IMG/VR virus record: IMGVR_UViG_3300020182_000023
Span: 14,697-78,696 of that record
Direction: 5' to 3' (one strand)
From: a virus
Length of the DNA stretch: 64,000 nucleotides
Shown here piece after piece: positions 20,720 to 42,173 of the stretch. Each line of letters starts with the position of its first letter. Positions within the stretch are counted from its first letter, which is position 1. Under the pieces are notes generated by a model. It ran no database searches. It had not been told where the DNA came from and was given only the letters and a program-made list of their open reading frames with translations. The translations under genes and the position numbers were made by a program.

Positions 20720-20796
20720 AACGAGTGCAGTCGTTAGAAAATATTTAAAATCCTTCCGTTAGTAGGCTCTGCACAGCCGAAAGCGTGAAGGATTTT
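20720..20796 (+). ncRNA. Putative kissing-loop leader RNA, copy 1
   Basis: aacga-GTGCAG-tcgtt hairpin; aaaatccttc..AGTA-ggct-CTGCAC-agcc-GAA..gaaggatttt hairpin; the loops are complementary. Confidence 0.6.
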
Positions 20797-20813
20797 TTTA
20801 TACATAATAATTT

Positions 20814-21434
20814 ATGAAAACAGGAAACATTGTAAAAGCTAAATTTACTGACGAGTTTGTTAGAATACATAACTCAATAGCTAGAAATCCGAAAATGTCA
20901 ATGAAGGAGAAGGGTCTGTTATTGATAATAATGTCATTACCCGAAAACTGGACATTACACATAAGTCAGCTTCCCGCTTTTTGCGGAGAAGGGAAAACCG
21001 CTGTCAGAAATGCGTTTAAGTCCTTGAAAGAAAAAGGCTTTATTATTGAAGTTGAAATGAGGGCTTCCGATGGGAGGTTTAACGGGAAAAATTATATGGC
21101 TTACTACGAAAGTCAAACCATTGAAGAATTTATGGTAAAACGCTCTACAACCAAGGCAGATTCACCGCGTGCGGGTTTTCGGGATGCGGATAAACGGGAT
21201 GCGGATAACAGGACACTACAAAGAAAGAACGTTACACTTAATAAAAAGAAAGAAAACAAAAAAGAAAAAAAAGAAAAAGAGCAGTTAGATTTTTCTTTTT
21301 TTCTTTTTAAGCTTAAGCAAGGTCAGCGCATACCAAAAACAGAAGTACCTAATCATTTATTAAATGAATTTAATTCTTCAACAGAAGTTTTGTATAATCA
21401 AGAAGAATCATATTACTTTATGCTACCATTTTAA
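20814..21434 (+). CDS. Phage replication initiator (N-terminal wHTH)
   Basis: F.RIHNSIARNPKMSMKEKGLL.IIMSLP.NW...G.TAVR.A.K.L.EKGFI pattern of phage replisome organisers; internal repeats. Confidence 0.7.
   Translation: MKTGNIVKAKFTDEFVRIHNSIARNPKMSMKEKGLLLIIMSLPENWTLHISQLPAFCGEGKTAVRNAFKSLKEKGFIIEVEMRASDGRFNGKNYMAYYESQTIEEFMVKRSTTKADSPRAGFRDADKRDADNRTLQRKNVTLNKKKENKKEKKEKEQLDFSFFLFKLKQGQRIPKTEVPNHLLNEFNSSTEVLYNQEESYYFMLPF
21165..21209 (+). repeat. Iteron-like 15-bp repeats (putative origin)
   Basis: ccgcgtgcgggtttt / cgggatgcggataaa / cgggatgcggataac followed by an A-rich tract. Confidence 0.5.
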
Positions 21435-21734
21435 TAACAGCGAATTAAACAAAAGATTATATGGAACTAGTGTATATCGAATTAAAATGTATAATAATTA
21501 AATATTAAAACAATGGGAAGATTAACAGAAACAATGGCGTATTTAACAGCAGAACCCAATAAGTTTAGTAAGCTAACTAAGCAAGTGAACGGAGGATTCT
21601 TTTATTTATCATATATAACTCCAAATGATGATTTAAAAAAAGTTAGAAGTAAAATGAAGCTATATAAGAAGGATTAACTTATATTAACCTTTACGTTAGG
21701 ATGTTTTATTTATGTTTGACTTAAATAAAGAATT

Positions 21735-22016
21735 ATGGAAAAAGAAGATAACCTTCAAACATTAAAAACTAAAGCTGAACTAGACTTAATATTCAGTAAA
21801 AATAGTAATACGGATAGATACATTTCTAAATGGATTGAGGTTAAAGGCGTTTCTAGCGATGTAATATGTTCTGCTATGTATTTAGATGGTAAGCCTCATA
21901 CGATTACGTTTGACGAGGTTACAGTAGGCGAAAACAGACACCATAACTCAATAAGCATAAACATAAAAGAAGTAAAGCCATTATTTGATTTTATCTCTAA
22001 TATTTTAAATAAGTGA
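21735..22016 (+). CDS. Hypothetical protein
   Basis: 93 aa after a TATGTTTG box. Confidence 0.55.
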   Translation: MEKEDNLQTLKTKAELDLIFSKNSNTDRYISKWIEVKGVSSDVICSAMYLDGKPHTITFDEVTVGENRHHNSISINIKEVKPLFDFISNILNK

Positions 22017-22083
22017 AGAATTATGGCTGAATATAATTATTAGTCAATAATCTCCGCCTAAACAAAAAGTCTATATTTGATAT

Positions 22084-22302
22084 ATGGAATTTTCACTATT
22101 TTTAAACAACGGAGAACAAATAAATATAAACACAGAAGATTATACAGACCCTACTAGAACGGTTATGGAATACCTTATATCAATGCTAGAATATTATGAA
22201 ACAGAATTATCCTTCTGTGATGAAGAAAATGAATTACTGTATCAGCAAGTGGAATATTGTAAACTACTTACTGATTTGTTGAAGCCAGAGATAAAGAATT
22301 AA
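22084..22302 (+). CDS. Hypothetical acidic protein; stop codon overlaps attC-like site A
   Basis: 72 aa; its TAA is part of the TAAC. Confidence 0.55.
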   Translation: MEFSLFLNNGEQININTEDYTDPTRTVMEYLISMLEYYETELSFCDEENELLYQQVEYCKLLTDLLKPEIKN

Positions 22303-22348
22303 CACCAAGCTAAGAAGCGTTTTAATGCTTTCTTAGCGGCTGTTATGC
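22297..22348 (+). repeat. attC-like hairpin A (short type)
   Basis: TAAC-accaa-gctaagaagcgtt..aatgctttcttagc-ggct-GTTATGC. Confidence 0.65.
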
Positions 22349-22418
22349 AACGTTTTAATGTTGCAATTTTTAACCCTTATTAACATTAACCAATAGATAA
22401 TATTAATACATTTGAATT

Positions 22419-22850
22419 ATGATACAAATAGATAATATAGAAATAGACCCCACTGCATTAGTAGTGTTAGGAGGGTTTGCATTAGGGATGATTATAGCCC
22501 CTTTTGATTCCGCATTAATAAAAAGAGAATACAGGCTAGAATGGCTGTATCACACAGCTAAGTTTATGCTTATGTTCTTGTTAGGTGGTGCGTTATTACA
22601 CCACGTTCTACCTAAAGATGGATACTTCGTTCCAAGACTTATAGCTTGCTCATTATCATACAGCATTTCCTTTGACTTGTTTTTAAACTTTTTAAGAGGC
22701 AAGGAGATATTTTACATAGGACAAACTGCTTTTCTTGATAAGATGGCTAGAAAGTACCTTAAAACGGGTTTAAACTATATTTTCGTAAGGTTATTAGCTG
22801 TGTTTTTGATTGGAGTAGGAATAGTAATACATATTTTATTAAATAATTAA
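22419..22850 (+). CDS. Multi-pass membrane protein
   Basis: 143 aa with about 4 hydrophobic segments; FD..LN.LRGK..FYIG.TA.LDK motif. Confidence 0.6.
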   Translation: MIQIDNIEIDPTALVVLGGFALGMIIAPFDSALIKREYRLEWLYHTAKFMLMFLLGGALLHHVLPKDGYFVPRLIACSLSYSISFDLFLNFLRGKEIFYIGQTAFLDKMARKYLKTGLNYIFVRLLAVFLIGVGIVIHILLNN

Positions 22851-22853
22851 GAT

Positions 22854-23039
22854 ATGAATACAACTAAAATAACATATGAGGGTTACGGTAAGAAAATTTC
22901 CGTTGAATTAGACCACGAAGATGTATCTATACAAGAAGTATTAGACGCTGTTGTTTCAATGCTTTACGGAAGTGGATTTCATAAGCAGACAGTAGATAAC
23001 GGAATAATAGAATTAGCAGAAGAATTAAACGATAAATAA
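22854..23039 (+). CDS. Hypothetical protein
   Basis: 61 aa ORF. Confidence 0.5.
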   Translation: MNTTKITYEGYGKKISVELDHEDVSIQEVLDAVVSMLYGSGFHKQTVDNGIIELAEELNDK

Positions 23040-23048
23040 TTAAATAGA

Positions 23049-23249
23049 ATGGATAAGAGATACATTATAGAAGATTTAGGCTTAAAGAAAGCTAAGGATT
23101 ACAAGGGAGAGGTTTATTTTTACCCTGACGAAGAAGATTTTGTTGGGTTCTTTATAGAATCAGAAGATAAAACTCACTTTGTGTTTATACCGTCAGAGCC
23201 AATAGACAGCTTATCAAGTAAAACGGCTTTTGAAAGAATATTTAAGTAG
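23049..23249 (+). CDS. Hypothetical protein
   Basis: 66 aa ORF. Confidence 0.5.
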   Translation: MDKRYIIEDLGLKKAKDYKGEVYFYPDEEDFVGFFIESEDKTHFVFIPSEPIDSLSSKTAFERIFK

Positions 23250-23367
23250 ATATGAAAGATATGGTTTTATTGGTACTGTTAGCTGTATGTATAGTTGAAT
23301 ACAGAGAAAGACCTAGAATAGACTTCTGAGGGAATGTTTATTTGTGGTACGGTAGATATAATCGTAA

Positions 23368-24018
23368 ATGTATAAATATATTATAATGGAATATAAGATA
23401 GAAAAACAAGCTAAAGGCACTCGAATACTTTTCGGGGATGAGGTAAGAGATAGATACACGCTATTAAATAAAATGATAGCTACCGTTGAGTCTTACGGGT
23501 TTCAAGGAATACAACTGCCTAGCATAGAGCCGTCTGAAATATACATAGACAAAGCAGGGAGAGAAGTGCTTAATCAAATGTGGGTGTTTCCAGATAAAAA
23601 AGGAAGGAATGTATGCTTACGCCCAGAGGCAACGGCTACCGTTCAGCTAATCGCTAATCATTTCTGGCAAGCTAAAAAAGAAATAAGAGTTTGGTATTTT
23701 GAGAAATGCTGGAGATACGAAAAACCGCAAAGGGGCAGATACAGAGAATTTTGGCAGTTCGGTTGCGAAGTAATAAACCCATCTACTGATTTAATAAAAG
23801 AAGAATTAATAGACATATCTAAAGAACTTTGTGAACTTCAAACAAAGGATATAACGATAGATTATTCCGTAACAAGGGGATTGGGCTATTATACAGATAA
23901 AGGCTTTGAATTACGCTGTAAGCAACTAGGAGCGCAAGAACAGATATGCGGAGGTGGTTCTTATGATAGAGGAATTGGGTTTGCCATTGGGTTTGATAGA
24001 TTAATGCTTTGTAAATAA
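23368..24018 (+). CDS. Minimal histidyl-tRNA-synthetase-like catalytic domain (likely start 23386)
   Basis: KGTR, LRPEATA, motif 2 WRYEKPQRGRYREFWQFGCE, His loop RGLGYYT, GAQ.QICGGG.YD, motif 3 GIGFAIGFDRL; no insertion or anticodon-binding domain. Confidence 0.85.
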   Translation: MYKYIIMEYKIEKQAKGTRILFGDEVRDRYTLLNKMIATVESYGFQGIQLPSIEPSEIYIDKAGREVLNQMWVFPDKKGRNVCLRPEATATVQLIANHFWQAKKEIRVWYFEKCWRYEKPQRGRYREFWQFGCEVINPSTDLIKEELIDISKELCELQTKDITIDYSVTRGLGYYTDKGFELRCKQLGAQEQICGGGSYDRGIGFAIGFDRLMLCK

Positions 24019-24024
24019 ATAATT

Positions 24025-24255
24025 ATGAAAACAAAATTGATTAGAAACAGTACGCTCCAAGACTTAATGGATGCTGCGGAGTATTCTTCTTACTCAGAAA
24101 CACTAGAAGGTGTTAAACGGGCTAAAATAGGCTTAGATATATACGAGAAAGTAAAGGGTGGCTGGAAGCAAATCAGCGATTCGGGTATTATACCTAAGAA
24201 GTGTAACGTTATATCTCTTGATGCTAATGGCGCAAGCAGAATGAAGCGGAGGTAA
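24025..24255 (+). CDS. Hypothetical protein; stop overlaps attC-like site B
   Basis: 76 aa; TAA lies within TAAC. Confidence 0.5.
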   Translation: MKTKLIRNSTLQDLMDAAEYSSYSETLEGVKRAKIGLDIYEKVKGGWKQISDSGIIPKKCNVISLDANGASRMKRR

Positions 24256-24344
24256 CGGTTTGTGTATGAGTAGTGTGGCTTTGCTCTTATTTTCAACTTA
24301 CAGATAAACTTATTTAGCCACATTACTTATACACTTTTTTATAG
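24250..24344 (+). repeat. attC-like hairpin B (long type, degenerate 3' core)
   Basis: TAAC-ggttt-gtgtatgagtagtgtggct...agccacattacttatacac-tt-TTTATAGGTA (GTT expected). Confidence 0.55.
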
Positions 24345-24364
24345 GTATGTAAAATTTACGGAAT

Positions 24365-24511
24365 ATGAATAAAGAAAATAATTATTGGAAAGGAATAATG
24401 GTTGGATTTGCAGTAAGCACAATTGTTTGGTGTACTTTATGGGCATTTGTTATTGGAAAAATAGATAAGGTTCACAAACAAGAACTTGATTATATAATAG
24501 AAAAACACTAA
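24365..24511 (+). CDS. 48-aa membrane protein, cassette between sites B and C
   Basis: MNKENNYWKGIMVGFAVSTIVWCTLWAFVIGKIDKVHKQELDYIIEKH; flanks ttataggtatgtaaaatttac and gtaaattttattacctataa are near-complementary. Confidence 0.55.
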   Translation: MNKENNYWKGIMVGFAVSTIVWCTLWAFVIGKIDKVHKQELDYIIEKH

Positions 24512-24537
24512 ACAAAGTAGGTAGTAAATTTTATTAC

Positions 24538-24590
24538 CTATAACACCCGTCTAAGAAACGCTTTAATGTTTCTTTTGGCGGCTGTTAGAT
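24538..24590 (+). repeat. attC-like hairpin C (short type)
   Basis: ctaTAAC-acc-cgtctaagaaacg..tgtttcttttggcg-gct-GTTAGAT. Confidence 0.6.
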
Positions 24591-24654
24591 AAAGTTTAAC
24601 AACCATTTTACCCGACAGGGGAAATTGGTTAAGGAACATTAATAGATTTGAATT

Positions 24655-25029
24655 ATGAAACTACACAAAGACATATTATACTCCGTAGGAGATGAAATTG
24701 AGATAGATAACATTAAATACACCATAGAACTCGCAGGATGGGGTAAAATACGACTACATAAGAAATGCTGTGGTGATATGTCCGCTGCCAAAGAAGTAGA
24801 TGACGTAACAGCTATACGGGGCTTAGATATAATAATAGCACTTAATGAAGAAGGTGCTACTGAAGAGGTAGAGGAAATTAAAAATAACTTAGAATGTCAT
24901 TTTAATGAAATTGAGTGTAAATTTAAATCTGAAGAATCTAACCTTAATGACAAAATCCGCATATTAGAAGCGCAGAATAAAGATTTAAAGAATGAACTAG
25001 AGGATGATAAGTCTTGGTGGATATGGTAG
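24655..25029 (+). CDS. Hypothetical coiled-coil protein
   Basis: 124 aa after a TAGATTTG box. Confidence 0.55.
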   Translation: MKLHKDILYSVGDEIEIDNIKYTIELAGWGKIRLHKKCCGDMSAAKEVDDVTAIRGLDIIIALNEEGATEEVEEIKNNLECHFNEIECKFKSEESNLNDKIRILEAQNKDLKNELEDDKSWWIW

Positions 25030-25030
25030 C

Positions 25031-25060
25031 GATACGATAAGATACGATAAGATACGATAA
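25031..25060. repeat. Tandem repeat (GATACGATAA)x3
   Basis: Three exact 10-bp copies plus a degenerate fourth, between convergent genes. Confidence 0.85.
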
Positions 25061-25109
25061 TAATACGAAAAAGAGTTTAAGAAATGAAAACAACAGAAAG
25101 CTCGGTTAA

Positions 25110-25556
25110 CTACTGGGCTTTTTTGTTTCGCCCCCTTAAGGCTCTTTGCACCGTACTCAAGCTAACATCCAACTCATTCGCCAACTCCTGCTTAGAATAT
25201 TCTGGAAATAATTTATTTAACTCCAAAATCTTATTAACCATAGCCTTCCTTAAACTCTTCTTAATTAACCTAGCTTTCCTATTCTTAGATGTCCTTAGCC
25301 TAATAGCACGGCATTCTCGCTGCTTCAACTCCTTCAACCACATAGCTAACCAAAAATGTAAATAAGCAGAAGGCTTCCTATAATCATCAAACACCCATAT
25401 ACTATGAACCTCCCAACTGCCACCCAACTTGTGATACCACCTGTAATTAGAGTCCCTATCCCTTACAATTTTATGATTCTCTATCCTACATAAAGAAGCT
25501 AAATCATCATCAGACCAACTCGTACTTAAATTAACATCTTCCATATTCAAAAACAA
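25110..25556 (-). CDS. Protein with C-terminal HTH
   Basis: SKQELANELDVSLSTVQRALR. Confidence 0.55.
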   Translation of the reverse strand: MFLNMEDVNLSTSWSDDDLASLCRIENHKIVRDRDSNYRWYHKLGGSWEVHSIWVFDDYRKPSAYLHFWLAMWLKELKQRECRAIRLRTSKNRKARLIKKSLRKAMVNKILELNKLFPEYSKQELANELDVSLSTVQRALRGRNKKAQ

Positions 25557-25662
25557 ATATACCTAAACCATAAGGCTATAAAAAACAAAATAACACTCCT
25601 TAACATCTATCAATAAGATAATTAATTACTTTAGCTGTATGAAAAATAAAAAGTAAATAATT

Positions 25663-26010
25663 ATGAACTCAGTAGAAGAATACGAAAAAGAAGAACGGGA
25701 AATAAAAAAACTAATAGATGAGCTTAAAACAAGAAAGCCTACTATAAAAGAGATAAAAAAAGTATTGGACTTTAAAATACTACATAAGGACTCTAAGCAA
25801 AAATGGGTAATAAACGAATACTTCCCGTTAGAACACCACGAAAAACATTCAACATCATACCTAGTGCTTAAACCTTACAATAAGGGGTGGTTTTATAGAA
25901 ATGAATCATCGCACGACTACGGTATGCAAATAAACCCAGAGGTGTTTGAGGTGAAAATGACAGAACAAGAGGTAGTAGATAAGTATGTTATTAGTGATTA
26001 TGGATTGTAG
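25663..26010 (+). CDS. Hypothetical protein
   Basis: 115 aa ORF. Confidence 0.55.
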   Translation: MNSVEEYEKEEREIKKLIDELKTRKPTIKEIKKVLDFKILHKDSKQKWVINEYFPLEHHEKHSTSYLVLKPYNKGWFYRNESSHDYGMQINPEVFEVKMTEQEVVDKYVISDYGL

Positions 26011-26161
26011 TTTAATCCCCCGCAATACACAAAGGAAATAATATGAAACACATAGGATATATACCAAAAGAAACAGAAAAGAAACTACATAGAGAAGTAT
26101 GCAGTGAACTTACAGAACAAGACTACAACGGAAAAGATACTTACCACTTATACATAGAACA

Positions 26162-26506
26162 ATGGAATATAACTCAGACTTTAAATACGACCTAAAAGTA
26201 GGGCAAATAAAAGAAAAAGAACTAGCACATATACTCCAAAATGAAAAAATAGAAGTAAAAACAGACCTGCAAGCTCACAAAACAGGAAATATATTTATAG
26301 AATACCACTCAAGAGGTAAACCATCAGGACTAGCAACATCAGAAGCTAAATACTACTGCATAGCTATACAAGAAATACTAATAATACTACCAGCCAAAAA
26401 ACTTAAAAAACTATGCAGAAAATACCTAAACACCAACAGAGATAAAAAAGGCGGAGATAGCAACTCCTCAAAAGGAATACTCCTGCCAGTAAAAGATTTA
26501 TTTTAA
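26162..26506 (+). CDS. Small PD-(D/E)XK-like phage protein
   Basis: F..DL..GQ..E, IEVKTD, TGNIFIEY.SRGKPSG..TS.A motifs. Confidence 0.55.
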   Translation: MEYNSDFKYDLKVGQIKEKELAHILQNEKIEVKTDLQAHKTGNIFIEYHSRGKPSGLATSEAKYYCIAIQEILIILPAKKLKKLCRKYLNTNRDKKGGDSNSSKGILLPVKDLF

Positions 26507-26557
26507 AAATTTTGTATGTATGTAGAAGTGGGGGATAATATAATATTCAACCCCGCC
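26507..26557. repeat. Imperfect direct repeat, copy 1 (flanks HNH gene)
   Basis: aaattttgtatgtatgtagaagtgggggataatataatattcaaccccgcc resembles 27721-27772. Confidence 0.5.
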
Positions 26558-26581
26558 ACCTCCAACAAACCAAACCCGAAT

Positions 26582-27679: not shown

Positions 27680-27720
27680 ATATTATATTTTTGTAGGTAC
27701 AAATATAAGAAAAATAATTT

Positions 27721-27772
27721 AAATTTTGTGTGTATAGAGGGGTGTGGTATAATAAATAGTTCAATGCCCGCC
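27721..27772. repeat. Imperfect direct repeat, copy 2
   Basis: aaattttgtgtgtatagaggggtgtggtataataaatagttcaatgcccgcc. Confidence 0.5.
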
Positions 27773-27943
27773 TCAAACCCAATAAAAAACGGCTCAATAT
27801 TACCCGAGTGGGTCAATATTTCAACTTCAAAAACATAACCACCACCACTACATTACACCACGTTACACCATAGCATTTATATCTACATTCCTTGCCTATG
27901 CTATGCGCTTGATGCTATTGTATTTAACATTTATTAACAATGT

Positions 27944-28264: not shown

Positions 28265-28287
28265 ACAAACACAAAGCCCCGTTCATA

Positions 28288-32814: not shown

Positions 32815-32818
32815 TTGC

Positions 32819-33216: not shown

Positions 33217-33353
33217 TATACAAATTTATATATTGGTTAATGCTTGCTTCATTAGGAGCATTAGCTTGGGGAGTTATTATAGGGTTTATTTATACCGTCC
33301 TTTGTGGGATGGCGGAATTTATAGGATTAATTTAAATACCTATATTTGCAACC

Positions 33354-33440
33354 TAAGAGCGTGAGACCTCAACTTAAAACATTTAGATAATTCCTTGCCG
33401 AGAACCCTTCGGTCTCACGCCTTCTTGGTGGGGGATTATC
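33354..33440 (+). ncRNA. Putative kissing-loop leader RNA, copy 2
   Basis: gag-CGTGAGAC-ctc; gataattcctt.gccgagaa..GTCTCACG..ttcttggt.gggggattatc; directly after TATATTTG (33341-33348). Confidence 0.55.
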
Positions 33441-33458
33441 GACTTTATTATAATTATT

Positions 33459-33944
33459 ATGGCTGATAGAACACACGGAATGTCTAGCACTAGGGAATAC
33501 AAGGTATGGAAGACTATAAAAGATAGGTGCTATGGAATTAATAGCGATTGCTATGACAGATACGGAGGCAGAGGTATAGTTATGCAGTATAATTGGATTA
33601 ACAACTACATAGAATACTATAATTATGCAAGTAAGATAGATGGATTCTCAGACCCTAATAAATCAATAGATAGAATAGATTCTAATGGAAACTACGAAGA
33701 GGGTAATATTAAATTCTCTACCCCTAGTCAACAATGCGCTAATAGAAGGCTATTCAAGAACTCTAAATCAGGCTACACTGGCGTAGTTAAAAAAGGAAAG
33801 AAATACGAGGCTACCATAAGCGTTAACGGTAAAAGGATATATATAGGAAGGCATAAAGACCCTAAAGTATTGGCTATAATGAGAGACGAATATATAATCA
33901 AAAACAATCTTACCGAGTACCCACTTCAAATTTTAAATAGATGA
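33459..33944 (+). CDS. HNH-AP2 homing endonuclease
   Basis: THGMS.TREY..W..IK.RC, YGGRGI, SIDRIDSNGNYE.GN, SGYTGV...Y.ATI...GKRIYIG (AP2). Confidence 0.8.
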   Translation: MADRTHGMSSTREYKVWKTIKDRCYGINSDCYDRYGGRGIVMQYNWINNYIEYYNYASKIDGFSDPNKSIDRIDSNGNYEEGNIKFSTPSQQCANRRLFKNSKSGYTGVVKKGKKYEATISVNGKRIYIGRHKDPKVLAIMRDEYIIKNNLTEYPLQILNR

Positions 33945-35899
33945 ATAAAGTATCAGTATTCAAGCACTATAAAGACACTCACAGCCCTATACACGCAGAT
34001 GTATTTGGTATCTTAGAAAAGATAAAGACTGGAGGTAACGAGAAAGAACTAATCGAACACATAAGAACCTTAGAAGGTGATGAATATAAGAAAGAGAAAC
34101 TAAAACTGCCGTTAATTTGCTTTGGTGGTACGTTTGGGAATAGAAGTAAAGACGGAATTATTAACGGTTCGGGTATGATTCCATTAGATTTTGATGAAGG
34201 CACTGAGGATGAACTTAATGAACTTAGAAAAACATTAGAGTCTCAGCCATACACAATAGCAGTATTCTCTTCGCCACGTTTAAGAGGTAGATTTAAAGCT
34301 CTTATACGCATCCCTGTTACATCTTCGGATGAAGAGTTCAAAAAGTATTTTGCCGCCTTAAAAAAGGAGTATAAGACCATAGACCCTAGTGGTAAAGATA
34401 TTTCCAGAGCATCGTTCTTCACCTACGACCCTGATATTTACATTAACAAAGATGCTACGGTGTGGGATATTAAATACGAAACACCTAAGCAAAAGAAAAC
34501 AACAGAAAGATATACAGTTAGAGATTGGGATTCTGTTACCAATGCACTAAAGAAAATCGAGACAGCAGAAGATGGGTATAAGCATTTAGCTAGAACTAAG
34601 ATTGCATATTTAATGGGAGGTTGGATTAGCGCAAAGCAAATTAACTACCAAGAGGCAATGAAATTATTAGAGGATGCCGTTGCTAAGAATACAACAGACC
34701 TTGATGCTGCAATGAAAACCGTTAAGGATTGTGTACAAGCAGGAATGAACGCCCCACTTAATATGTCAGAGCAAAGAGAGGTATTAAAACTATCCGTTGC
34801 AGCCCCTAGAAGGTATAAGCCTATGTCTGAGGTATGGGATGATGTACAGAATTTCTATGAAACGGGCTATAAGCGTGGTTGGGATGTTGGGTTTAATTGT
34901 GCTAAAGAATATCTTAGCATCTTAGAGGGTAGTACTAGTTATGTTTATGCTGCGCCTGCTGCTGGTAAAACTCAGGTTTGGATGGAGATACTTATGAATA
35001 TAACCATTGACAGAGTTAGGAGTGGGGAAGATTTTTACAATCAAATATTCACGCCCGAAACGGGAGATGTAGCACAAGTGTATGGGGAGTTAATTAGTAT
35101 TCACGCTAAGAAATCTTTTGTTGGTAAATATAAGATGTCGGAAGATGAAATGAAAGCATCTGCTGATTTTGTATCTAAGTACTTTTTGATATTAGACTAC
35201 GAAGGAGATACGGCTGATATGAAAGGAATATTAACACAAGTGGAGGCTGCTGAAAGAGAATTTGGAATACATATTAATACGGTTACTATTGACCCGTTAA
35301 ACTACCTATCTTTTGATGAGGGTAGATATAGTAGAAGGGATTTATCCATTGCTAAGGATTTAGATTTATTCCTTGCTGATGCCCGAAAAAATAAAAGGCA
35401 TAACTGTATAATAACCCATGCACGCGACCAGCAAGCAATTAAAAATAATGATGGTCAATGGTATTATCCGTTAGTCAGCCCTAGAATGATTTTAGATGGG
35501 CAACAGTTTTTTAGAAAAGGTATGTTAATGATTAGTATATACAGACCATTAGATATAAAGAATGAGCCTTTAGCTGATGATAACGGTTATCCCGCAGAGC
35601 AGAACGAAACCCAAGTATGGATACAGAAAGCTAAACCTAAAGGCTGCGCTAAGGTAGGTATGTTTAAATTATTCTACGACTTTAAGGCTAATAGATATTA
35701 CGAGAAAGACGAACAAGGTAGAGAGTTCTTTGCTTGGGGAGTACCTAGACAGCAAGAAGATAAATTTCCGCCAATACAAAAGGAGATAAAGCAAATACCC
35801 CCCGTTAAGAAAGAAGAGGACTCATTAAAAGCTAACACAAGTTTTGATGAGCCAACCCCAATAATAGATGATATTGAAATAATGGAATCCCCATTTTAA
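33941..35899 (+). CDS. Primase-helicase fusion (BT4734/VirE-N-like primase + SF4 helicase)
   Basis: K.KLP.ICFGGTF, PLDFD, F.SP...GRFKAL, D.SGKDISRA.F..YDP; Walker A AAPAAGKT, VTIDP, ITH. Confidence 0.8.
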   Translation: MNKVSVFKHYKDTHSPIHADVFGILEKIKTGGNEKELIEHIRTLEGDEYKKEKLKLPLICFGGTFGNRSKDGIINGSGMIPLDFDEGTEDELNELRKTLESQPYTIAVFSSPRLRGRFKALIRIPVTSSDEEFKKYFAALKKEYKTIDPSGKDISRASFFTYDPDIYINKDATVWDIKYETPKQKKTTERYTVRDWDSVTNALKKIETAEDGYKHLARTKIAYLMGGWISAKQINYQEAMKLLEDAVAKNTTDLDAAMKTVKDCVQAGMNAPLNMSEQREVLKLSVAAPRRYKPMSEVWDDVQNFYETGYKRGWDVGFNCAKEYLSILEGSTSYVYAAPAAGKTQVWMEILMNITIDRVRSGEDFYNQIFTPETGDVAQVYGELISIHAKKSFVGKYKMSEDEMKASADFVSKYFLILDYEGDTADMKGILTQVEAAEREFGIHINTVTIDPLNYLSFDEGRYSRRDLSIAKDLDLFLADARKNKRHNCIITHARDQQAIKNNDGQWYYPLVSPRMILDGQQFFRKGMLMISIYRPLDIKNEPLADDNGYPAEQNETQVWIQKAKPKGCAKVGMFKLFYDFKANRYYEKDEQGREFFAWGVPRQQEDKFPPIQKEIKQIPPVKKEEDSLKANTSFDEPTPIIDDIEIMESPF

Positions 35900-35910
35900 A
35901 ACAAATAATT

Positions 35911-36150
35911 ATGAAAAAATTAACAAAAATACATTACGAAAAGAACATCCTACCAACGTATTCAGTCGAATGGAAGGAAGTTCTTAAGGATGACGAAACA
36001 AACAAAAAGTTTATAGAAATAGCTAATGAATCAGTAGTAAATGAACTTAAGATTAAAATAAAATTACTGAAATTAATGCCAACTCCAGATGAGTATAAAA
36101 AGGAAGCATTGAGCTACTTGGAATCAATGTTAAATGAGTATACTATTTAG
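35911..36150 (+). CDS. Hypothetical protein
   Basis: 79 aa ORF. Confidence 0.5.
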   Translation: MKKLTKIHYEKNILPTYSVEWKEVLKDDETNKKFIEIANESVVNELKIKIKLLKLMPTPDEYKKEALSYLESMLNEYTI

Positions 36151-36222
36151 ATTACATTAATAAATGTTAAAAAGCTTGTCAATCAGAAAGTTAAATAATA
36201 TATTTGAGTAAAATTTAGAGAT

Positions 36223-36447
36223 ATGAGCTTAACTAAAAGAAACATAGAGCAATTTAATTCTGGCTACGATGGAATGGATGATGAATACTTCTATCGCAAA
36301 GCACAAGAAGCAGAATACAGAGAAATGACAAATGAAATACCGTACTTACAGCGACTTAGGATTGAAGATGGAAAGCTTAAACAAGCTATCGAAGCATCAG
36401 CTAGAGCAGCTACTGGAAGTAATGACAAGGCATCACGGTTACATTAA
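36223..36447 (+). CDS. Hypothetical protein
   Basis: 74 aa after a TATATTTG box. Confidence 0.5.
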   Translation: MSLTKRNIEQFNSGYDGMDDEYFYRKAQEAEYREMTNEIPYLQRLRIEDGKLKQAIEASARAATGSNDKASRLH

Positions 36448-36638
36448 TAGTGAGTTTACAGAGAAAAGAAAGAAAGTAATTGAACATTTAATAAAAGAAA
36501 GATGAACTACGATGATTACAAGCTATCTAATCCTTACGATGACGAGGATGTATTTGGAAATACAATTGATAGTGAAGAAGAGGAAAACGAAGCTGCTGAT
36601 AGAGCAGATGATTATAATGATGAATTAAAACTAGAAGA

Positions 36639-36837
36639 ATGAAAAATATATACAAAGCATTAGCTGATTTTCAGCAAGAAGTCAAGTATAACATACCAGT
36701 TTTTATATAATACTACTTACATTTGTTGTATGGAAAAATGGAAAAATATAAAAAATTTTGAAGGTATTTATAAGGTTTCAAATAAAGGTAATGTAAAAAG
36801 CCTAAAAAGAAAGAGAATTATTTTTATTAAACATTAA
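36639..36837 (+). pseudogene. ERF 5' remnant plus NUMOD4 remnant
   Basis: MKNIYKALADFQQEVK.. then TACATTTG and MEKWKNIKNFEGIYKVSNKGNVKSL..*. Confidence 0.6.
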
Positions 36838-36845
36838 ACAAAAAA

Positions 36846-37448
36846 ATGAAGAATTTAGCTAAAGCGGTACTAGCCGTAATGAAAGACGTTAAGGGCGTTG
36901 AAAAGAGTATGACTGTTGGTAGCGGAAACTACTCTTATAAAGGGGTATCGGACTACGAGGTAAAGAAGATTTACAATAAGTCTATGGCGGCTAATGGGCT
37001 GTGTATTTTGCCTATTGGAATAGTAGACGATGTAGATATTAATAGATATGAAGACCAATACGGTAAGCAGAAAATGAATGTGTTTACTAGGGTTACTTCT
37101 ACATATCTTTTACTACACGAAAGCGGGGAATCTCAAGAGTTGGTAGGTTACGGTCACGGAGTAGATACGGGAGATAAAGCAGCGGGAAAGGCTACTACAT
37201 ACGCAATGAAGTACGCTTTATTATACACATTTATGACTCCTACGGGCGCAATAGATGATTCCGATACAACCCATTCAAATGACCACGAAGCACCCGTTGT
37301 TGCACCTAAGAAAGAAGCGTTAACAGAATCTCACCCACGCTATGAAGGGGCAAAGAAAGCGTTAAGCGAAGGTAAAACTACATTAGAAGTAATTAAACAA
37401 ACATTCACCGTAAGTAAAGCGGTAGAAAAACTATTAACAAGTAAATAA
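36846..37448 (+). CDS. ERF-family ssDNA annealing protein
   Basis: LLHESGES, G.D.GDKAAGKATTYAMKYALL..F.....DD.D. Confidence 0.85.
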   Translation: MKNLAKAVLAVMKDVKGVEKSMTVGSGNYSYKGVSDYEVKKIYNKSMAANGLCILPIGIVDDVDINRYEDQYGKQKMNVFTRVTSTYLLLHESGESQELVGYGHGVDTGDKAAGKATTYAMKYALLYTFMTPTGAIDDSDTTHSNDHEAPVVAPKKEALTESHPRYEGAKKALSEGKTTLEVIKQTFTVSKAVEKLLTSK

Positions 37449-37449
37449 A

Positions 37450-37983
37450 ATGGAAGAATGGAGGGATGTTTCGGGGTATGATGGCAGGTATCAAGTTAGT
37501 AATTTAGGTAGAGTAAAGAGTCTTGATATGATTATAAATAATAGGCATAATAGTACATCTAAAAAGAAAGGAAGGATATTAAAACAGCAACCTAACAAGA
37601 AGGGTTATCTTCAGGTAAGATTATGCTACAAAAAAACACATAAAAGCTGTAGGGTGCATAGATTAATTACTGAAGCTTTTATCCCTAATCCAGAGAATAA
37701 GCCTCAAGTAAACCATATAAATGGAGTTAAGGATGATAATAGGGTTGAAAATTTAGAATGGTGTACAAATAAGGAAAATCAAATACACGCAACAAAAAAT
37801 GGGCTATTTAATCCTAATTTTGGAGAAGAGCATCATATGTCTAAGTTGACAAATAATCAAGCCAAGCACATTAGGCTACTTAAATCAAGAGGTTTTACGC
37901 TAAATAAATTATCTAAAAAATACAAACTGTCAATGACAGCGATAAGCAACATAGTAAATAATAAAACTTATATAAATATCTAA
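37450..37983 (+). CDS. NUMOD4-HNH homing endonuclease
   Basis: EEWRDVSGYDGRYQVSNLGRVKS, VHRL..EAFIPNPENKPQVNHINGVKDDNRVENLEW. Confidence 0.9.
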   Translation: MEEWRDVSGYDGRYQVSNLGRVKSLDMIINNRHNSTSKKKGRILKQQPNKKGYLQVRLCYKKTHKSCRVHRLITEAFIPNPENKPQVNHINGVKDDNRVENLEWCTNKENQIHATKNGLFNPNFGEEHHMSKLTNNQAKHIRLLKSRGFTLNKLSKKYKLSMTAISNIVNNKTYINI

Positions 37984-38002
37984 CAAGTAAATAATAAATA
38001 AG

Positions 38003-38374
38003 ATGAGTGAATTAGTAATGAAGGGTACAATAGAGAAAATCGGAAGCCTTGAACAAATATCCGATAAGTTTAAGAAGGTTGATTGGGTGCTTGATACGGG
38101 TGGAGATTATCCGCAGAAAATAGCGTTCCAAACCATTCAAAAAAACGCCGACAGCTTCGTTAAGCATAATAAAGTTGGTGACGTAGTTGAAGTTAAGTTC
38201 AACGTAAAAGGCAGAAAATGGGTCAACCCACAAGGAGAGGCTAAGTATTTCAATACACTTGAGGCTTGGTTTATCTCAAAGGCTGATGGTCAAAGTGGAG
38301 CAAGTACGCCTAACAAGGAGTTCGAGAAGCAAACGGCAGCGCCAATAGCTGAGGATAATTCACTCCCATTTTAA
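38003..38374 (+). CDS. ssDNA-binding protein (DUF3127 type)
   Basis: YPQKIAF, VGDVVEVKFNVKGRKW, KYFNTLEAW, acidic LPF tail. Confidence 0.8.
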   Translation: MSELVMKGTIEKIGSLEQISDKFKKVDWVLDTGGDYPQKIAFQTIQKNADSFVKHNKVGDVVEVKFNVKGRKWVNPQGEAKYFNTLEAWFISKADGQSGASTPNKEFEKQTAAPIAEDNSLPF

Positions 38375-38467
38375 TCTATGATTAACAATTACACAAGCAA
38401 AGCAGAGGAGGTTCTAATTGAGCCTTCTTCTGCATTGTCTTTAGCTGTTTAAAATATATTTAAAATT

Positions 38468-38647
38468 ATGAAAGAAGAAATAGAAAGTAAACTATCCCCG
38501 CAACAGATGGTAGTAATAGACTCTTTAAGAGAGCAATTAGGAGATGACACAGTTAATATACTCCTAGAGTTTGGTTATGAAATAGGTAAGGCAGATGGAG
38601 TAGAGATGTTCTTTCAGCAGACTAAAGATATTTTAAAGGAAGCATAA
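38468..38647 (+). CDS. Hypothetical 59-aa protein; stop overlaps attC-like site H
   Basis: MKEEIESKLSPQQMVVID...KEA*, TAA within GCATAAC. Confidence 0.5.
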   Translation: MKEEIESKLSPQQMVVIDSLREQLGDDTVNILLEFGYEIGKADGVEMFFQQTKDILKEA

Positions 38648-38748
38648 CGTTGAGTATAAACGGTCGTTACGGATGTGTAGATATGTTTCACAACGTTTAG
38701 AGTAAAAACTGCATAGCGTAGCGGAGTTGTTTTTAAACTTTGTTATGC
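38642..38748 (+). repeat. Composite attC-like element H/I
   Basis: GCATAACgttgagt..., second TCACAACgtttagagtaaaaac...gtttttaaactt-t-GTTATGC. Confidence 0.55.
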
Positions 38749-38767
38749 GTTGCGTAAAATTAAGATT

Positions 38768-38995
38768 ATGACACCAAAAGAAAAAGCAAAAGAATTACAG
38801 AATAAACACCTTTACTGCTATTTAAACCCTGCTTACCCATTACACGATAGATTTGATGTTATTCAAGCGTCTGAGCAAGCATTGGTAACAGTAAATGAAA
38901 TACTTGAAAGTTTTTTAATAGATATTCCAGACCACCAATTTAAGTTTTGGGAAGAAGTTAAGAGCGAATTAAACACCATAATATTAGGAGAATGA
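38768..38995 (+). CDS. MTPKEKAKEL-type small protein (cassette-borne)
   Basis: MTPKEKAKEL...AL.TVNEIL...FWEEVKSEL, starting 20 nt after GTTATGC. Confidence 0.6.
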   Translation: MTPKEKAKELQNKHLYCYLNPAYPLHDRFDVIQASEQALVTVNEILESFLIDIPDHQFKFWEEVKSELNTIILGE

Positions 38996-39239
38996 AAACA
39001 CCACTACAGGAATTAATGGAGTATATGGAGCAAAACCAATATTTCATAGGAATGATTTATTGGCTAAGTATAATGAACTTATTGAAAAAGAGAAACAAGA
39101 GTTTATAAGTTGTTATATTAGAGCTATGACAAAAGAATATCTAAACCCTATGCCGAGAAAATATTATTATGAAGTTGCCGAAGATTATTATTATACTTTT
39201 ATTAACCCATTAGGCAAAAATGAGAAATCCTATAAATAG
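38992..39239 (+). pseudogene. Frameshifted small phage gene
   Basis: MKTPLQELMEY...FIG then -1 frame NDLLAKYNELIEKEKQEF...AEDYY; one base missing near 39050. Confidence 0.45.
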
Positions 39240-39274
39240 CCACTAAACGGTAATTAGTGGCAAAATATAGAACT

Positions 39275-39403
39275 ATGAAAAAGAAACTAATTGAGATACC
39301 CGAAGAAGTATTTAATCAAATAGAATTATCCGCAAAAAAGAATGTAAGGAGTGTAAATAAAGAGATAGTGTTTCTTCTTACGAGTGCGGTGGGTAAAAAA
39401 TAA
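39275..39403 (+). CDS. Arc-like ribbon-helix-helix protein
   Basis: MKKKLIEIPEEVFNQIELSAKKNVRSVNKEIVFLL. Confidence 0.65.
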   Translation: MKKKLIEIPEEVFNQIELSAKKNVRSVNKEIVFLLTSAVGKK

Positions 39404-39407
39404 TTGC

Positions 39408-39467
39408 ATATAACACCAAGCTAAGAAACGTAAAGCGAAGCGTATGTTTCCTTAGCGACTGTTAACG
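39408..39467 (+). repeat. attC-like hairpin J (short type)
   Basis: ataTAAC-accaa-gctaagaaacgta..tatgtttccttagc-gact-GTTAACG. Confidence 0.65.
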
Positions 39468-39507
39468 CACGTTTTAATGTGCGGAATATTAAAAACTTAA
39501 AAATACA

Positions 39508-39711
39508 ATGGAACAAATAACAGAAGAAGAAAGAGATTTATTATTTAACACTTGGACTAGTAGAGATAAAGTTTCATTTCTTAATGACATAATTCTTAAC
39601 TCTAATGAGCCTATTGCAACAGAGAGATTATTGTATGAGGTAGCTCAGAATATATGGGAGAACTGCATAGACAGAAAGTTAGATTTAATGAGTAAAAATG
39701 AAATAGTATGA
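39508..39711 (+). CDS. Hypothetical protein
   Basis: 67 aa ORF. Confidence 0.5.
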   Translation: MEQITEEERDLLFNTWTSRDKVSFLNDIILNSNEPIATERLLYEVAQNIWENCIDRKLDLMSKNEIV

Positions 39712-40160
39712 TTAGTTCAAATGATTGGTTCGAGGTTATTAATACACCTAAGTCGCTATCTCCATTCGAGCAAGTGCTACTTAAAATTGGAGTCGAGGCG
39801 GAAAGAGTAAATGCAAAAAAAGATTACCTAGAACTAAAGGATAGGCTTCTTTTTTACTTTGAAAATCATCACCATATAGATAGAGATAAGCTATTGACTA
39901 AAACTAAGACTAGAAAGGCGGAGATTGTAGAAACTAGGCAAATGATAATGCACTGCTTGAGACTTAATACAAACGCTTCATTAAGAATTATAGGCGATTT
40001 ATTTGATAAAGACCACTCTACATCATCCCACTCGGTTAAGGTTATAAATAATTTATTAGAGATAGACCCCGTATTAAGGATTAAGTATTGTGATATGCTT
40101 AAACATTGTGGAATGGAAACTAAAGCTAGCAGATTAGTAAAAAAATACAATAGAAAATGA
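39708..40160 (+). CDS. DnaA domain-IV-like HTH protein
   Basis: TRKAEIVETRQMIMH.LR..TNASL..IG.LF.KDHST..HS...I. Confidence 0.75.
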   Translation: MISSNDWFEVINTPKSLSPFEQVLLKIGVEAERVNAKKDYLELKDRLLFYFENHHHIDRDKLLTKTKTRKAEIVETRQMIMHCLRLNTNASLRIIGDLFDKDHSTSSHSVKVINNLLEIDPVLRIKYCDMLKHCGMETKASRLVKKYNRK

Positions 40161-40606
40161 ATTACGAATTAACATTAACGACACACGAAAAGAGAACTGC
40201 GGAACTCTTTGGAGATATAGATACCCTAGAACTTCATACCGTTCCTATTGAAACGTTAGAGGCTATGAAGAACCATTACCTTGTATCACTATCATATTTA
40301 GGGGAACTCAAAACCACTAGGGGAAATGCTTTAAACGAATCTAAAACAGCCTTAAAAATAATCCTAACCGAAAAGAAAATAGAACACTTAAAGGACTTAA
40401 CGGGTTCTGATAAAGCTAGAATAGCTACGTTATACGCAGAAAGAGATTGCGAGACAGAAATTAAAGGCATAGCTATACTAGAAAACGAATACAAAGAAGT
40501 AAGCAATAGGTATTCTGTATATGATACTATTATACGCTCTCTTACGCAGACAATAAGCGTAGTTAAGAATGAAATACAATCACAGCAATTTATAAAAGGG
40601 AAATAA
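40157..40606 (+). CDS. Helical protein (possible recombination mediator)
   Basis: 149 aa, coiled-coil, in the recombination cluster. Confidence 0.4.
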   Translation: MNYELTLTTHEKRTAELFGDIDTLELHTVPIETLEAMKNHYLVSLSYLGELKTTRGNALNESKTALKIILTEKKIEHLKDLTGSDKARIATLYAERDCETEIKGIAILENEYKEVSNRYSVYDTIIRSLTQTISVVKNEIQSQQFIKGK

Positions 40607-40610
40607 GATT

Positions 40611-40979
40611 ATGGATTTTATAGGTAAGTATTGGTTAGATTACTATAAAATAAGACACTCTAAGCCATTTTATAACGGCTCTTTAAAGGTGGGTTATCCA
40701 ATAAACATAAAAGACATAATAAACAGCGACCTAAAACGGGTTATTCCAGAATCATTAGGAATATACCACTTATTTAAAGATGGTGAGTTAGTTTATATAG
40801 GTATGAGTAAGTGTATAAAAAAAAGAATATCAGAACATTACGATAATAATGACATTGACTTTAATGAGGTATTATGGTTCTGCGCTGAAATTGCAAATAA
40901 AAACATAAAAGATATATTTAGAATAGAGAGGCTAATGATTATAAAGCATAAACCTAAATTTAATACAGCATACCTATAA
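40611..40979 (+). CDS. GIY-YIG nuclease
   Basis: GIYHL...LVYIGMS..IKKRI.EH...IE..MI.KHKPKFN. Confidence 0.8.
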   Translation: MDFIGKYWLDYYKIRHSKPFYNGSLKVGYPINIKDIINSDLKRVIPESLGIYHLFKDGELVYIGMSKCIKKRISEHYDNNDIDFNEVLWFCAEIANKNIKDIFRIERLMIIKHKPKFNTAYL

Positions 40980-41326
40980 TGATTCCCGCCACAGAAAGAG
41001 AATATAACTACTTCAAACGCAACGGACATTGCTTTGATTTAGGCTCATTAGCATACAATGAACTAACAACCGAAGGTAAGATACCAAAGAAAGCTAAAGA
41101 CCCGTCAAAAGGCTTGGAATACGCTAAAGACTCACTCGTAGAGGTATATGAGATAGATAAAGAATTAGCCAACGAACAAATGACTAAATACTGGCAAGAC
41201 AGAATAGATAATATAGATGAATTAGTTAACAGAGCGATTAAGTTAAAAGGGAGTAGCGTGTTAAGGGATGCTGTATTTATCTATTTCAAGCGATATATAG
41301 TTAATGAATATTTTAAAACATTATAA
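40979..41326 (+). CDS. Hypothetical protein
   Basis: 115 aa ORF. Confidence 0.55.
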   Translation: MIPATEREYNYFKRNGHCFDLGSLAYNELTTEGKIPKKAKDPSKGLEYAKDSLVEVYEIDKELANEQMTKYWQDRIDNIDELVNRAIKLKGSSVLRDAVFIYFKRYIVNEYFKTL

Positions 41327-41604
41327 TGAAATCAGATAACGACTTATTTAAAATAGGGGCTAGATTAGCTCTACACGGACAAAGCTTCATAGAAGTGTTA
41401 GATGATATAAAAGGCACTAAGCTGTACAATAAGAAGCCTAAGATGCTACTCAATCAGTTAATGAAAGAGTTAGAGAAGGATGTAAGTATAAGTGGTGTAT
41501 TTACAGAAGGTCAAGATGTAATTACTAATTTATCACAAAAGATTGATAAAATAGTTGATAAGGAATTAGATGACACTATATTTGAGTTGAAGGATGGTAA
41601 GTAA
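41326..41604 (+). CDS. Hypothetical protein
   Basis: 92 aa ORF. Confidence 0.55.
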   Translation: MKSDNDLFKIGARLALHGQSFIEVLDDIKGTKLYNKKPKMLLNQLMKELEKDVSISGVFTEGQDVITNLSQKIDKIVDKELDDTIFELKDGK

Positions 41605-42019
41605 AAAGAAACCCTGTAAAGACCCTAACAACACAGAAGAGGGTAAGATGTGTTATTACTTTACTAAAAAATTTGGTTGTGCCTCGTGCAGCGCTAAATA
41701 CAAGCCTAAGACAAAAACTAAGAAGGTAAAACAGAAGATTAAGCAAGTTAGTTCTAAAAGAGCTAGGATGAATCAGGCTTATTCTGTTATGAGAAAGTTG
41801 TTTTTAAAGGATAAGACTTGTGAATTTCCTAGTTGTTCCCGCAAACACACAGAGGATAATCAACTAACCATACACCACAAGAGAGGAAGAAACGGAGAAA
41901 GATTACTAGATACAACCTATTGGATGGCTGTATGTATGGAACATCATAAATACATAGAAGAACACCGAGAAGAAAGTTTCAAGAAGGGTTGGTTAATAAA
42001 TAGAAATAAAGAGATATGA
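41594..42019 (+). CDS. Small Zn-binding HNH nuclease
   Basis: CE..SC, TIHHKRGR, WMAVCMEHH..IE. Confidence 0.7.
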   Translation: MVSKKKPCKDPNNTEEGKMCYYFTKKFGCASCSAKYKPKTKTKKVKQKIKQVSSKRARMNQAYSVMRKLFLKDKTCEFPSCSRKHTEDNQLTIHHKRGRNGERLLDTTYWMAVCMEHHKYIEEHREESFKKGWLINRNKEI

Positions 42020-42070
42020 CATATAGTTTCAGTAGAATAAGTTCGTTTCATAATTGCCCTAGTGGATGGT
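42016..42070 (+). pseudogene. 5' remnant of the PD-(D/E)XK exonuclease gene
   Basis: MTYSFSRISSFHNCPSGW parallels MKETIYSWSRVNYTCLAAW of the gene at 42962. Confidence 0.55.
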
Positions 42071-42092
42071 TTATTTTTATTTATATTTGTAT

Positions 42093-42173
42093 AGTAGAGT
42101 TACGGCTACTTTTAAATATTTTTACAAAGCCCTGTCAAGAGTAGAGTCCGTAACCTCGAAATTGATGGGGTTT
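42093..42173 (+). ncRNA. Putative kissing-loop leader RNA, copy 3
   Basis: agtag-aGTTACGG-ctact; aagccctgtcaa.AGTA-gag-tCCGTAAC-ctc-GAA.ttgatggggttt; after TATATTTG (42082-42089). Confidence 0.6.

Follow-up and report, generated by a model that had tools for sequence, protein, structure and literature searches.

What are the long structured leaders that precede three genes of a virus, and do they belong to one RNA family? The window analysed here, 64,000 nucleotides (nt) long, comprises bases 14697-78696 of a 78.7-kb IMG/VR virus record, and its primase/helicase matches only phages of Flavobacteriia (Flavobacterium, Riemerella, Cellulophaga, Nonlabens and Maribacter). Near-leaderless starts are common in this phage, with the ATG 4-7 nt past a TAnnTTTG promoter box (e.g. 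TACATTTGAATTATG; window positions 22072, 22407, 24643, 29775, 30504 and others), which suggests that leaderless or near-leaderless mRNA may be its default. Because so many other genes start in this manner, the three long leaders (copies 1, 2 and 3) stand out. The original prediction, made from the letters of the window, had described them as sequence-unrelated leaders with one kissing-loop RNA architecture. Covariation among relatives in other viral contigs indicates that the leader is a real, conserved, cis-located structured RNA of approximately 90 bases, and model searches place copies 1 and 3 in a cis-acting leader RNA family, previously undescribed, of Flavobacteriia-type phages. Its most likely role would be that of a terminator-based dosing device tuned by the kissing loop.

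Three leaders with complementary apical loops

All three leaders consist of the TAnnTTTG box, a gap of 4-8 nt, a small 5' hairpin (P1), an A/U linker and a long hairpin, whose lower and apical stems we refer to as P2 and P3. This layout was as originally described, and RNAfold recovered the nested hairpins in each case (z-scores of -3.9 for copy 1, -2.3 for copy 2 and -2.0 for copy 3). The apical loops of the small and the long hairpin are exact complements, over 6 nt in copy 1 (GUGCAG/CUGCAC), 8 nt in copy 2 (CGUGAGAC/GUCUCACG) and 7 nt in copy 3 (GUUACGG/CCGUAAC). Calculated energies were -7.8 to -11.7 kcal/mol for the loop-loop duplexes and -17 to -19 kcal/mol for the long hairpins. Loops of non-cognate copies in the window genome share at most 3 complementary bases, compared to 6-8 for the cognate pairs. 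The long stem ends 19 nt (copy 1), 18 nt (copy 2) and 6 nt (copy 3) before the ATG. Both the AGUA/GAA internal loop noted for copies 1 and 3 and the assignment of the downstream genes, a replication initiator (HTH_36/DnaD-like) and two HNH-type nucleases, were confirmed. The features of the three sites, all on the + strand, are as follows.

20705..20712 (+), copy 1: promoter box TATGTTTG, of the Bacteroidota -7 type (sequence)
20720..20735 (+), copy 1: P1 hairpin AACGA-GUGCAG-UCGUU, with GUGCAG at 20725-30 as kissing strand 1 (RNAfold, model match)
20736..20748 (+), copy 1: A/U linker with AAAAUAUUU
20749..20794 (+), copy 1: long hairpin, with P2, an internal loop of AGUA (20761-64) and GAA (20779-81), and P3 GGCU/AGCC (-18.7 kcal/mol)
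20765-78 (+), copy 1: apical part GGCU-CUGCAC-AGCC, with CUGCAC at 20769-74 as kissing strand 2
20793..20799 (+), copy 1: U7 directly 3' of P2, terminator-like; the ATG follows at 20814
20814..21434 (+), copy 1: downstream gene, replication-initiator-like, HTH_36, matching DnaD-like/replication initiation PHROGs
33341..33348 (+), copy 2: promoter box TATATTTG
33357..33370 (+), copy 2: small hairpin GAG-CGUGAGAC-CUC, a weak stem of 3 base pairs (bp)
33386..33440 (+), copy 2: long hairpin with a 19-bp stem, a bulge CCCUUC and apical GUCUCACG at 33412-19, complementing loop 1 over 8 nt
33459..33944 (+), copy 2: downstream gene, HNH endonuclease (PHROG 374, E 1e-34) with its ATG at 33459, overlapping the start of the primase/helicase gene (33941-35899)
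42082..42089 (+), copy 3: promoter box TATATTTG
42093..42110 (+), copy 3: P1 hairpin AGUAG-AGUUACGG-CUACU, with kissing strand GUUACGG
42111..42126 (+), copy 3: A/U linker UAAAUAUUU
42127..42173 (+), copy 3: long hairpin with a 12-bp P2, AGUA (42140-43) opposite GAA (42158-60), P3 GAG/CUC and loop UCCGUAAC (-17.0 kcal/mol)
42148-54 (+), copy 3: kissing strand CCGUAAC
42171..42179 (+), copy 3: U-rich tail UUUAUUUUU, followed at once by the ATG at 42180
42180..42965 (+), copy 3: downstream gene, NUMOD4 + HNH_3 homing endonuclease

Covariation supports a pseudoknotted transcript

Relatives were sought in IMG/VR by conserved linker and core words and then filtered for an upstream complement of the apical loop. 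With further scans, among them model scans of isolated phages, 31 members were collected from contigs of other viruses, including one in a cultured Flavobacterium phage. A looser descriptor, any hairpin plus a loop complement, was rejected, as it gave approximately 100 matches per strand in the genome and did not separate signal from chance. The loop pairs of the relatives included GUUGCGG/CCGCAAC, GUCGCAG/CUGCGAC, GGUCGGAG/CUCCGACC, GGUAGGAG/CUCCUACC, GUGAUGG/CCAUCAC, GUGGUGC/GCACCAC and AGUGCAUU/AAUGCACU, among others. Between the near-identical contigs L127 and L075, a G-to-A change in one loop was matched by a C-to-U change in the other (GUUGCGG/CCGCAAC vs GUUACGG/CCGUAAC).

In the structure-guided alignment of 18 sequences from a first covariance model (R1), 90.4% of cells were paired, compared to 61.5% after shuffling and 35-43% with slid partners, and both sides changed at 6 of the 7 kissing pairs. 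The 31 outside members gave 91.0% paired cells against 63.0% shuffled (none of 500 shuffles reached 91.0%) and 32-45% slid. Covariation was seen in all four helices of these members (P1, P2, P3 and the loop-loop helix). Their kissing helix was 88% paired; 5/7 of its pairs changed on both sides, and each of the four Watson-Crick pair types was seen in its centre. Across the nested helices, G-U cells outnumbered A-C cells 28 to 7, and the fold can therefore be assigned to the sense strand, that is, to the transcript.

Copies 1 and 3 are related; copy 2 is a likely variant

To remove circularity, a covariance model (R2) was built from the 31 members of other viral contigs only and then run on the window. 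Searching the whole window, R2 found copy 3 (77.1 bits, E 4.3e-13) and copy 1 (46.9 bits, E 7.1e-7), and these were the only two model-positive copies in the whole 78.7-kb record. Copies 1 and 3 share 74% column identity, the linker word AAAUAUUU and the AGUAG/CGAAA internal loop, features which indicate that they are paralogous members of one family. The two are not, as had been claimed, unrelated in sequence, and because they are paralogous, speaking of three unrelated sequences overstates convergence.

Copy 2 was missed by both R1 and R2 in the window-wide searches and scored 13.2 bits (R1) and 11.1 bits (R2) only in a local search of 301 nt with filters off. It resembles the other leaders in its small hairpin, its linker (UAAAACAUUU), its long stem and the 8-nt loop complement, and has neither the AGUA/GAA core nor the U-run. 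No relatives of the copy 2 type were found, leaving it without covariation support of its own, and its HNH homologue in L035 has no such leader. With a model score of only 11-13 bits, the relatedness of copy 2 is argued from architecture, position and the 8-nt loop complement. It is plausible as a variant because the bulged-G-type loop is frequent but optional in the family (see below), and we regard copy 2 as likely, if unproven, to be a divergent form of the leader.

Two weak R2 matches were also seen in the window, at 9428-9497 (-; 20.4 bits, E 0.2) and 15806-15873 (-; 18 bits, E 0.64). These are probably ordinary terminators in an A/U-rich context rather than members.

Anatomy of the family

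Family members have a P1 of 4-8 bp that starts 4-8 nt past the TAnnTTTG box, a P2 of 9-14 bp and a P3 of 3-4 bp. The kissing helix measured 5-7 bp as scored by script, with the loop complement extending up to 8-9 nt, and the linker was 17 ± 3 nt long (range 9-22 nt; 11 nt in copy 1). Conserved nucleotides fall in the unpaired parts (linker and AGUAG/CGAAA), while the helices vary freely.

As the first search patterns had imposed the linker word and the AGUAG/CGAAA core, two complementary scans were run to gauge this bias. Members from the core-anchored scan showed other A/U-rich linkers. In the scan anchored on P1 plus linker, the AGUA/GAA core was present in about half of the distinct cases, alternative cores including AGUAA/UGAAC, CAAAA, UGAUG/CUGAC and GAUAAAAG...CUUUUUGA. 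The bulged-G-type AGUA/GAA loop is frequent but optional in the family. Loop-loop complementarity was kept in nearly all members from both scans, and because it persists despite the varied cores and linkers, the defining features are the kissing pair, the 5' hairpin, the A/U linker and the long stem.

Individual leaders departed from this pattern. At L367:7064-7157 (-), and identically in L374, the apical core is inverted in the leader of a cassette with an L219-type HNH gene, TTTCGAGGTTGCGGTCTCTACTC being the reverse complement of the normal GAGUAGAG-loop-CUCGAAA. The U-run is weak here too. Because of the inversion, loop 2 is identical rather than complementary to loop 1 and the model matches both strands; the arrangement looks like a hairpin flip between the P2 arms and amounts to a natural kissing-loop knockout. 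Contig L373 carries a second, weaker leader (8234-8320, +; 27.4 bits) besides the one at 11113-11201, with kissing pair GUGGACG/CGUCCAC and a different junction. The recurring context ...CGACUAUCCCG..GG-GAGUAGAG-N10-CUCGAAA... in L359, L362/L363 and L364 is unrelated, has neither P1 nor a kissing partner, and may be part of another structured RNA.

When a transcript stops short of the 3' arm of P2, its nested minimum-energy fold has a longer loop-loop helix, in which the 3' strand of P1 (CUAC) is paired with the GUAG of the AGUAG core. In the main subfamily GUAGAG is present twice, in the core and in the 5' strand of P1, which allows this extended alternative helix. Since P1 itself covaries, the helix can be transient at most; on these predicted folds, it may be relevant to co-transcriptional folding.

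A terminator-like U-run follows the long stem

A run of at least five U directly after P2 was found in 29/34 distinct members (window copies included), and in 23 of 28 once six members picked by a TTTTT pattern were excluded. The control, upstream regions of open reading frames (ORFs) of at least 100 amino acids in the window genome, gave 5/72, an enrichment of 12-fold. In the window, the long stem is followed by a U-run, as in an intrinsic terminator, in copy 1 (U7) and copy 3 (UUUAUUUUU); this is not the case in copy 2. Among family members the AUG lies 8-25 nt past the long stem, and in neither the window copies nor the family members was a hairpin including the start codon seen.

The reading we prefer, which carries about half of our confidence, is that the leader is an attenuator whose embedded terminator is tuned by the kissing contact. 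The long hairpin and U-run would form an intrinsic terminator within the leader, with only a fraction of transcripts reaching the nuclease or initiator gene. Translation would probably be damped too, because the base of the long hairpin lies near the AUG. By joining the 5' hairpin and the apex of the terminator hairpin across a short linker, the kissing contact would compete with, or otherwise tune, closure of the lowest P2 pairs, those deciding termination, and in this way set the level of read-through. The logic would be that proposed for guanidine-IV, but with a loop-loop helix that is constitutively Watson-Crick. Termination, the direction of the kissing effect and the dosing role are what we infer from this arrangement.

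The idea of an attenuator fits the strongly enriched U-run after the long stem. What had been predicted as a conserved cis-regulatory RNA is upheld by covariation as a conserved structured RNA located in cis before DNA-acting genes, whilst the regulatory effect, the response to a protein or ligand and the toxicity of the genes, as originally proposed, are putative. Geometry is compatible with competition: P1, kissing helix, P3, internal loop and P2, when stacked, amount to approximately 32 layers or roughly 90 Å, which a linker of 11-20 nt must bridge. With so short a linker across this stack, the kissing contact would strain the complete closing of the lowest P2 pairs and be strained by it. 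In calculated energy, the loop-loop duplexes roughly match or exceed the few A-U-rich pairs at the base of P2.

Several points weigh against this attenuator. Linker length does not scale positively with P2 length (r = -0.34), so the steric competition is a matter of geometric reasoning. The kissing contact could equally stabilise the terminator, and pure attenuation does not explain the conserved linker (UGUAAAAUAUUU in many members) or the AGUA/GAA loop. A simple terminator scan does not call the leader hairpins, as structures with internal loops or long apical parts fall outside its rules. Finally, copy 2 and one HNH subfamily (L219, L372, L371 and L367) have no good U-run, and termination cannot for that reason be the sole conserved function.

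Other explanations of the leader

These members without a U-run, together with the conservation of unpaired nucleotides, raise other readings. It is possible, if unlikely, that the leader is a switch responding to a factor. Here the P1-kissing-P3 fold with its AGUA/GAA loop and linker would be recognised by a phage or host protein (an antiterminator of the N/nut or put type) or by a small ligand, which would decide termination and time expression. In favour of this, conserved nucleotides are unpaired and helices free to vary, and bulged-G loops are classic docking sites. Structured RNAs just past phage promoters, lambda nut and HK022 put, govern read-through of terminators; the leader, too, is a promoter-proximal structured RNA, with its terminator inside the folded domain. 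However, put and nut are not known to have kissing loops or a terminator inside. Against it, with unbiased anchors neither the linker sequence nor AGUA/GAA was universal, a co-occurring regulator was not identified, the genes downstream do not hint at a metabolite and no Rfam riboswitch model matches. We also entertain, tentatively and with little confidence, a broader version, in which the leader is a new class of portable riboregulator on selfish nuclease cassettes. Its loop-E/linker platform would sense a phage or host factor (protein or small molecule) and flip the embedded terminator, and freely evolving kissing codes would stop co-resident copies from cross-pairing.

A purely post-transcriptional element is, in our judgement, rather improbable. 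The structured 5' end would then be a cap that stabilises the mRNA and/or sets translation initiation of genes that, in contrast to most in this phage, are not leaderless, and the U-run a landing site for ribosomes. P1 does lie at the extreme 5' end, the AUG comes 8-25 nt past the base of the long stem, the fold is retained in copy 2 and the L219 group although they have no good U-run, and T-even homing endonucleases are under the control of translational hairpins. Yet the start codon never lies inside the hairpin, a stabiliser has no need of covarying loop-loop pairing, and a U-run of at least five right after a strong stem, enriched 12-fold, is the signature of an intrinsic terminator.

We hold it very improbable that the leader is a conditional processing site, a coaxial P2-loop-P3-kissing-P1 rod, double-stranded and quasi-continuous over approximately 30 bp, in which RNase III or some other nuclease would cut, much as it does in the leaders of T7 and lambda N. 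The summed helix length of approximately 30 layers would suit such cleavage, and phage RNase III sites have an internal loop in mid-stem, which the internal loop of the leader resembles; however, the U-run is left unexplained. There is similarly scant probability that a terminated RNA of approximately 85 nt acts in trans as the product, with the downstream gene expressed by leakage only. Promoter, structured RNA and terminator do make up a complete small RNA gene, but an AUG follows every member within 25 nt, and the loops pair with each other, leaving no free seed, and differ in sequence from copy to copy. Least probable of all is an element acting as DNA, either an operator or a recombination site for cassette shuffling with an incidental RNA fold: the linker core is palindromic (TAAAATATTTTA) and 119-148-nt blocks of promoter plus leader are found again, 97% identical, at other loci, as with PeSL cassettes, but the palindrome came largely from the search pattern and is missing in core-anchored members, and the excess of G-U over A-C (28 to 7) and the compensatory changes in four helices point to RNA.

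If the leader is indeed an attenuator tuned by its kissing loop, it would offer a natural kissing-loop/terminator module that can be programmed by sequence and comes with many orthogonal loop codes, and would be of interest for studies of RNA folding and for synthetic control elements.

Comparison with known RNAs

Scanning the 64-kb window with Rfam 15 at gathering thresholds gave no match, so the leader did not turn out to be an already known family. E-value scans of copy 1 and of the L204 leader gave nothing relevant, the best sub-threshold matches being unrelated and far below the cut-off. No Rfam ribozyme model, pistol or other small self-cleaving type, matched even at E up to 10. In the pistol ribozyme the P1 loop pairs with an internal loop, followed by P3 and a GU cleavage site, whereas the partner in the leader family is an apical loop. 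In copies 1 and 3, as in most members, AGUA and GAA face each other across an internal loop like the strands of the sarcin-ricin/loop E motif, a match in sequence only. Family variants (AUUA, AGUAA/UGAAC, CAAAA and unrelated junctions) differ from this motif, and copy 2 has none.

By its working principle, guanidine-IV (mepA motif) appears to be the closest known RNA. It likewise begins with a 5' hairpin, joined by a linker to a terminator hairpin that carries a U-tail, with kissing between the apical loops. Elongation of its terminator stem is proposed to shorten the linker and hinder the kissing loop, so that the two compete (PMC11611296). Its kissing needs guanidine and conserved loop nucleotides, in contrast to the 6-8-bp Watson-Crick helix of free sequence in the leader family, and mepA-type exporters lie downstream rather than phage nucleases and initiators. 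With loop sequences that vary with compensation, other genes downstream and no Rfam match, the leader family does not belong to guanidine-IV.

By biology, the closest comparison would be the T-even phages, where homing-endonuclease genes (I-TevI/II/III, segB, mobE and segF) are restrained by 5' hairpins or terminators (PMC2988022). In both systems 5' RNA structures or terminators would hold back selfish nuclease genes. In the T-even phages a simple hairpin masks the Shine-Dalgarno sequence, or a terminator lies within the ORF; these elements are mutually non-homologous and have no loop-loop pairing. In the leader family the hairpin stops before the AUG, unlike a translational hairpin of the T-even type, and one family serves at least four nuclease types as well as replication genes. 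By genome dynamics, the PeSL cassettes of T4-like phages seem closest. These are regulatory blocks repeated at the heads of variable genes and implicated in modular shuffling (PMC4122927), and the promoter-leader islands of 119-148 nt recur across loci in like manner. The PeSL stem-loop, however, is a plain terminator of the preceding gene upstream of the promoter, whereas in the leader family a covarying, pseudoknotted RNA fold is formed by the leader itself, downstream of the promoter.

Full-text literature searches found no description of the leader family, which a 2023 catalogue of 8,495 candidate RNAs from IMG/VR (PMC10690425) might include unnamed. The family is uncatalogued and falls into none of the known families compared here. 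It represents a widespread structured RNA with strong covariation that is missing from Rfam 15 and from the searched literature.

Downstream genes, mobility and distribution

Behind the leaders lie genes for homing nucleases (NUMOD4-HNH_3, HNH+NUMOD3, GIY-YIG+NUMOD3, EndoVII-like and others) and for replication proteins (HTH_36 and DUF6291), besides two short ORFs of unknown function. This links a defined RNA fold to homing endonucleases and replication genes of Bacteroidota phages, whose gene regulation is poorly known.

A 148-nt island is shared at 97% identity between oriented copies of L127 (~8882-9029) and L201 (7290-7437), in different loci and before different nuclease genes, and includes the first five codons (MKKCT). 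L225 and L215 have a 119-nt island in common with differing downstream genes, and between L204 and L219 the similarity is confined to the leader and the beginning of the HNH gene. These comparisons indicate that the promoter-leader block is a mobile or recombining module which moves between loci and travels with homing-endonuclease cassettes.

In bacterial and archaeal genomes, sampled one per species, a strict pattern gave no match; a looser pattern gave at least 120, with no real member among the matches listed. The family looks phage-only on this account. A BLAST search of one leader against isolated phages returned chance matches only, and model scans gave no significant match in crAss001, Maribacter Panino, Chryseobacterium MA9V-1, Riemerella PT33, Cellulophaga phi12:1 or MW202828. 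A match of 30.8 bits in Flavobacterium phage FL-1 was rejected, being a plain terminator after AAAAAUAUUUU with no complementary loops.

The member in a cultured phage is that of Flavobacterium phage vB_FspP_elemoF_6-3D (NC_055853.1, 9209-9306, -; 47.7 bits, E 1.4e-7; locus L393:3193-3318). Its leader has the box TATCTTTG, kissing pair GUGGAGG/CCUCCAC, an AUUA/GAA junction and a U6GU5 tail, and heads an operon of gp17, a replication initiation protein and a primase/helicase, a context that parallels copies 1 and 2 of the window. This member makes the function of the leader directly testable in a cultured phage.

Structured leaders of other kinds were seen before related genes. In L010/L011 another HNH gene is preceded by the box TATATTTG and then a long, internally structured hairpin (AAAUGGGA...UCCCAUUU), which did not match the family model. 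A different structured leader lies approximately 110 nt upstream of the match to a related NUMOD4-HNH gene in L008/L009. Here a long hairpin (ACAGCGGA...UCCGCUGU) contains AUGCCUUAA, with a 9-nt complement (UUAAGGCAU) downstream, and this may be another nuclease leader of the pseudoknot type.

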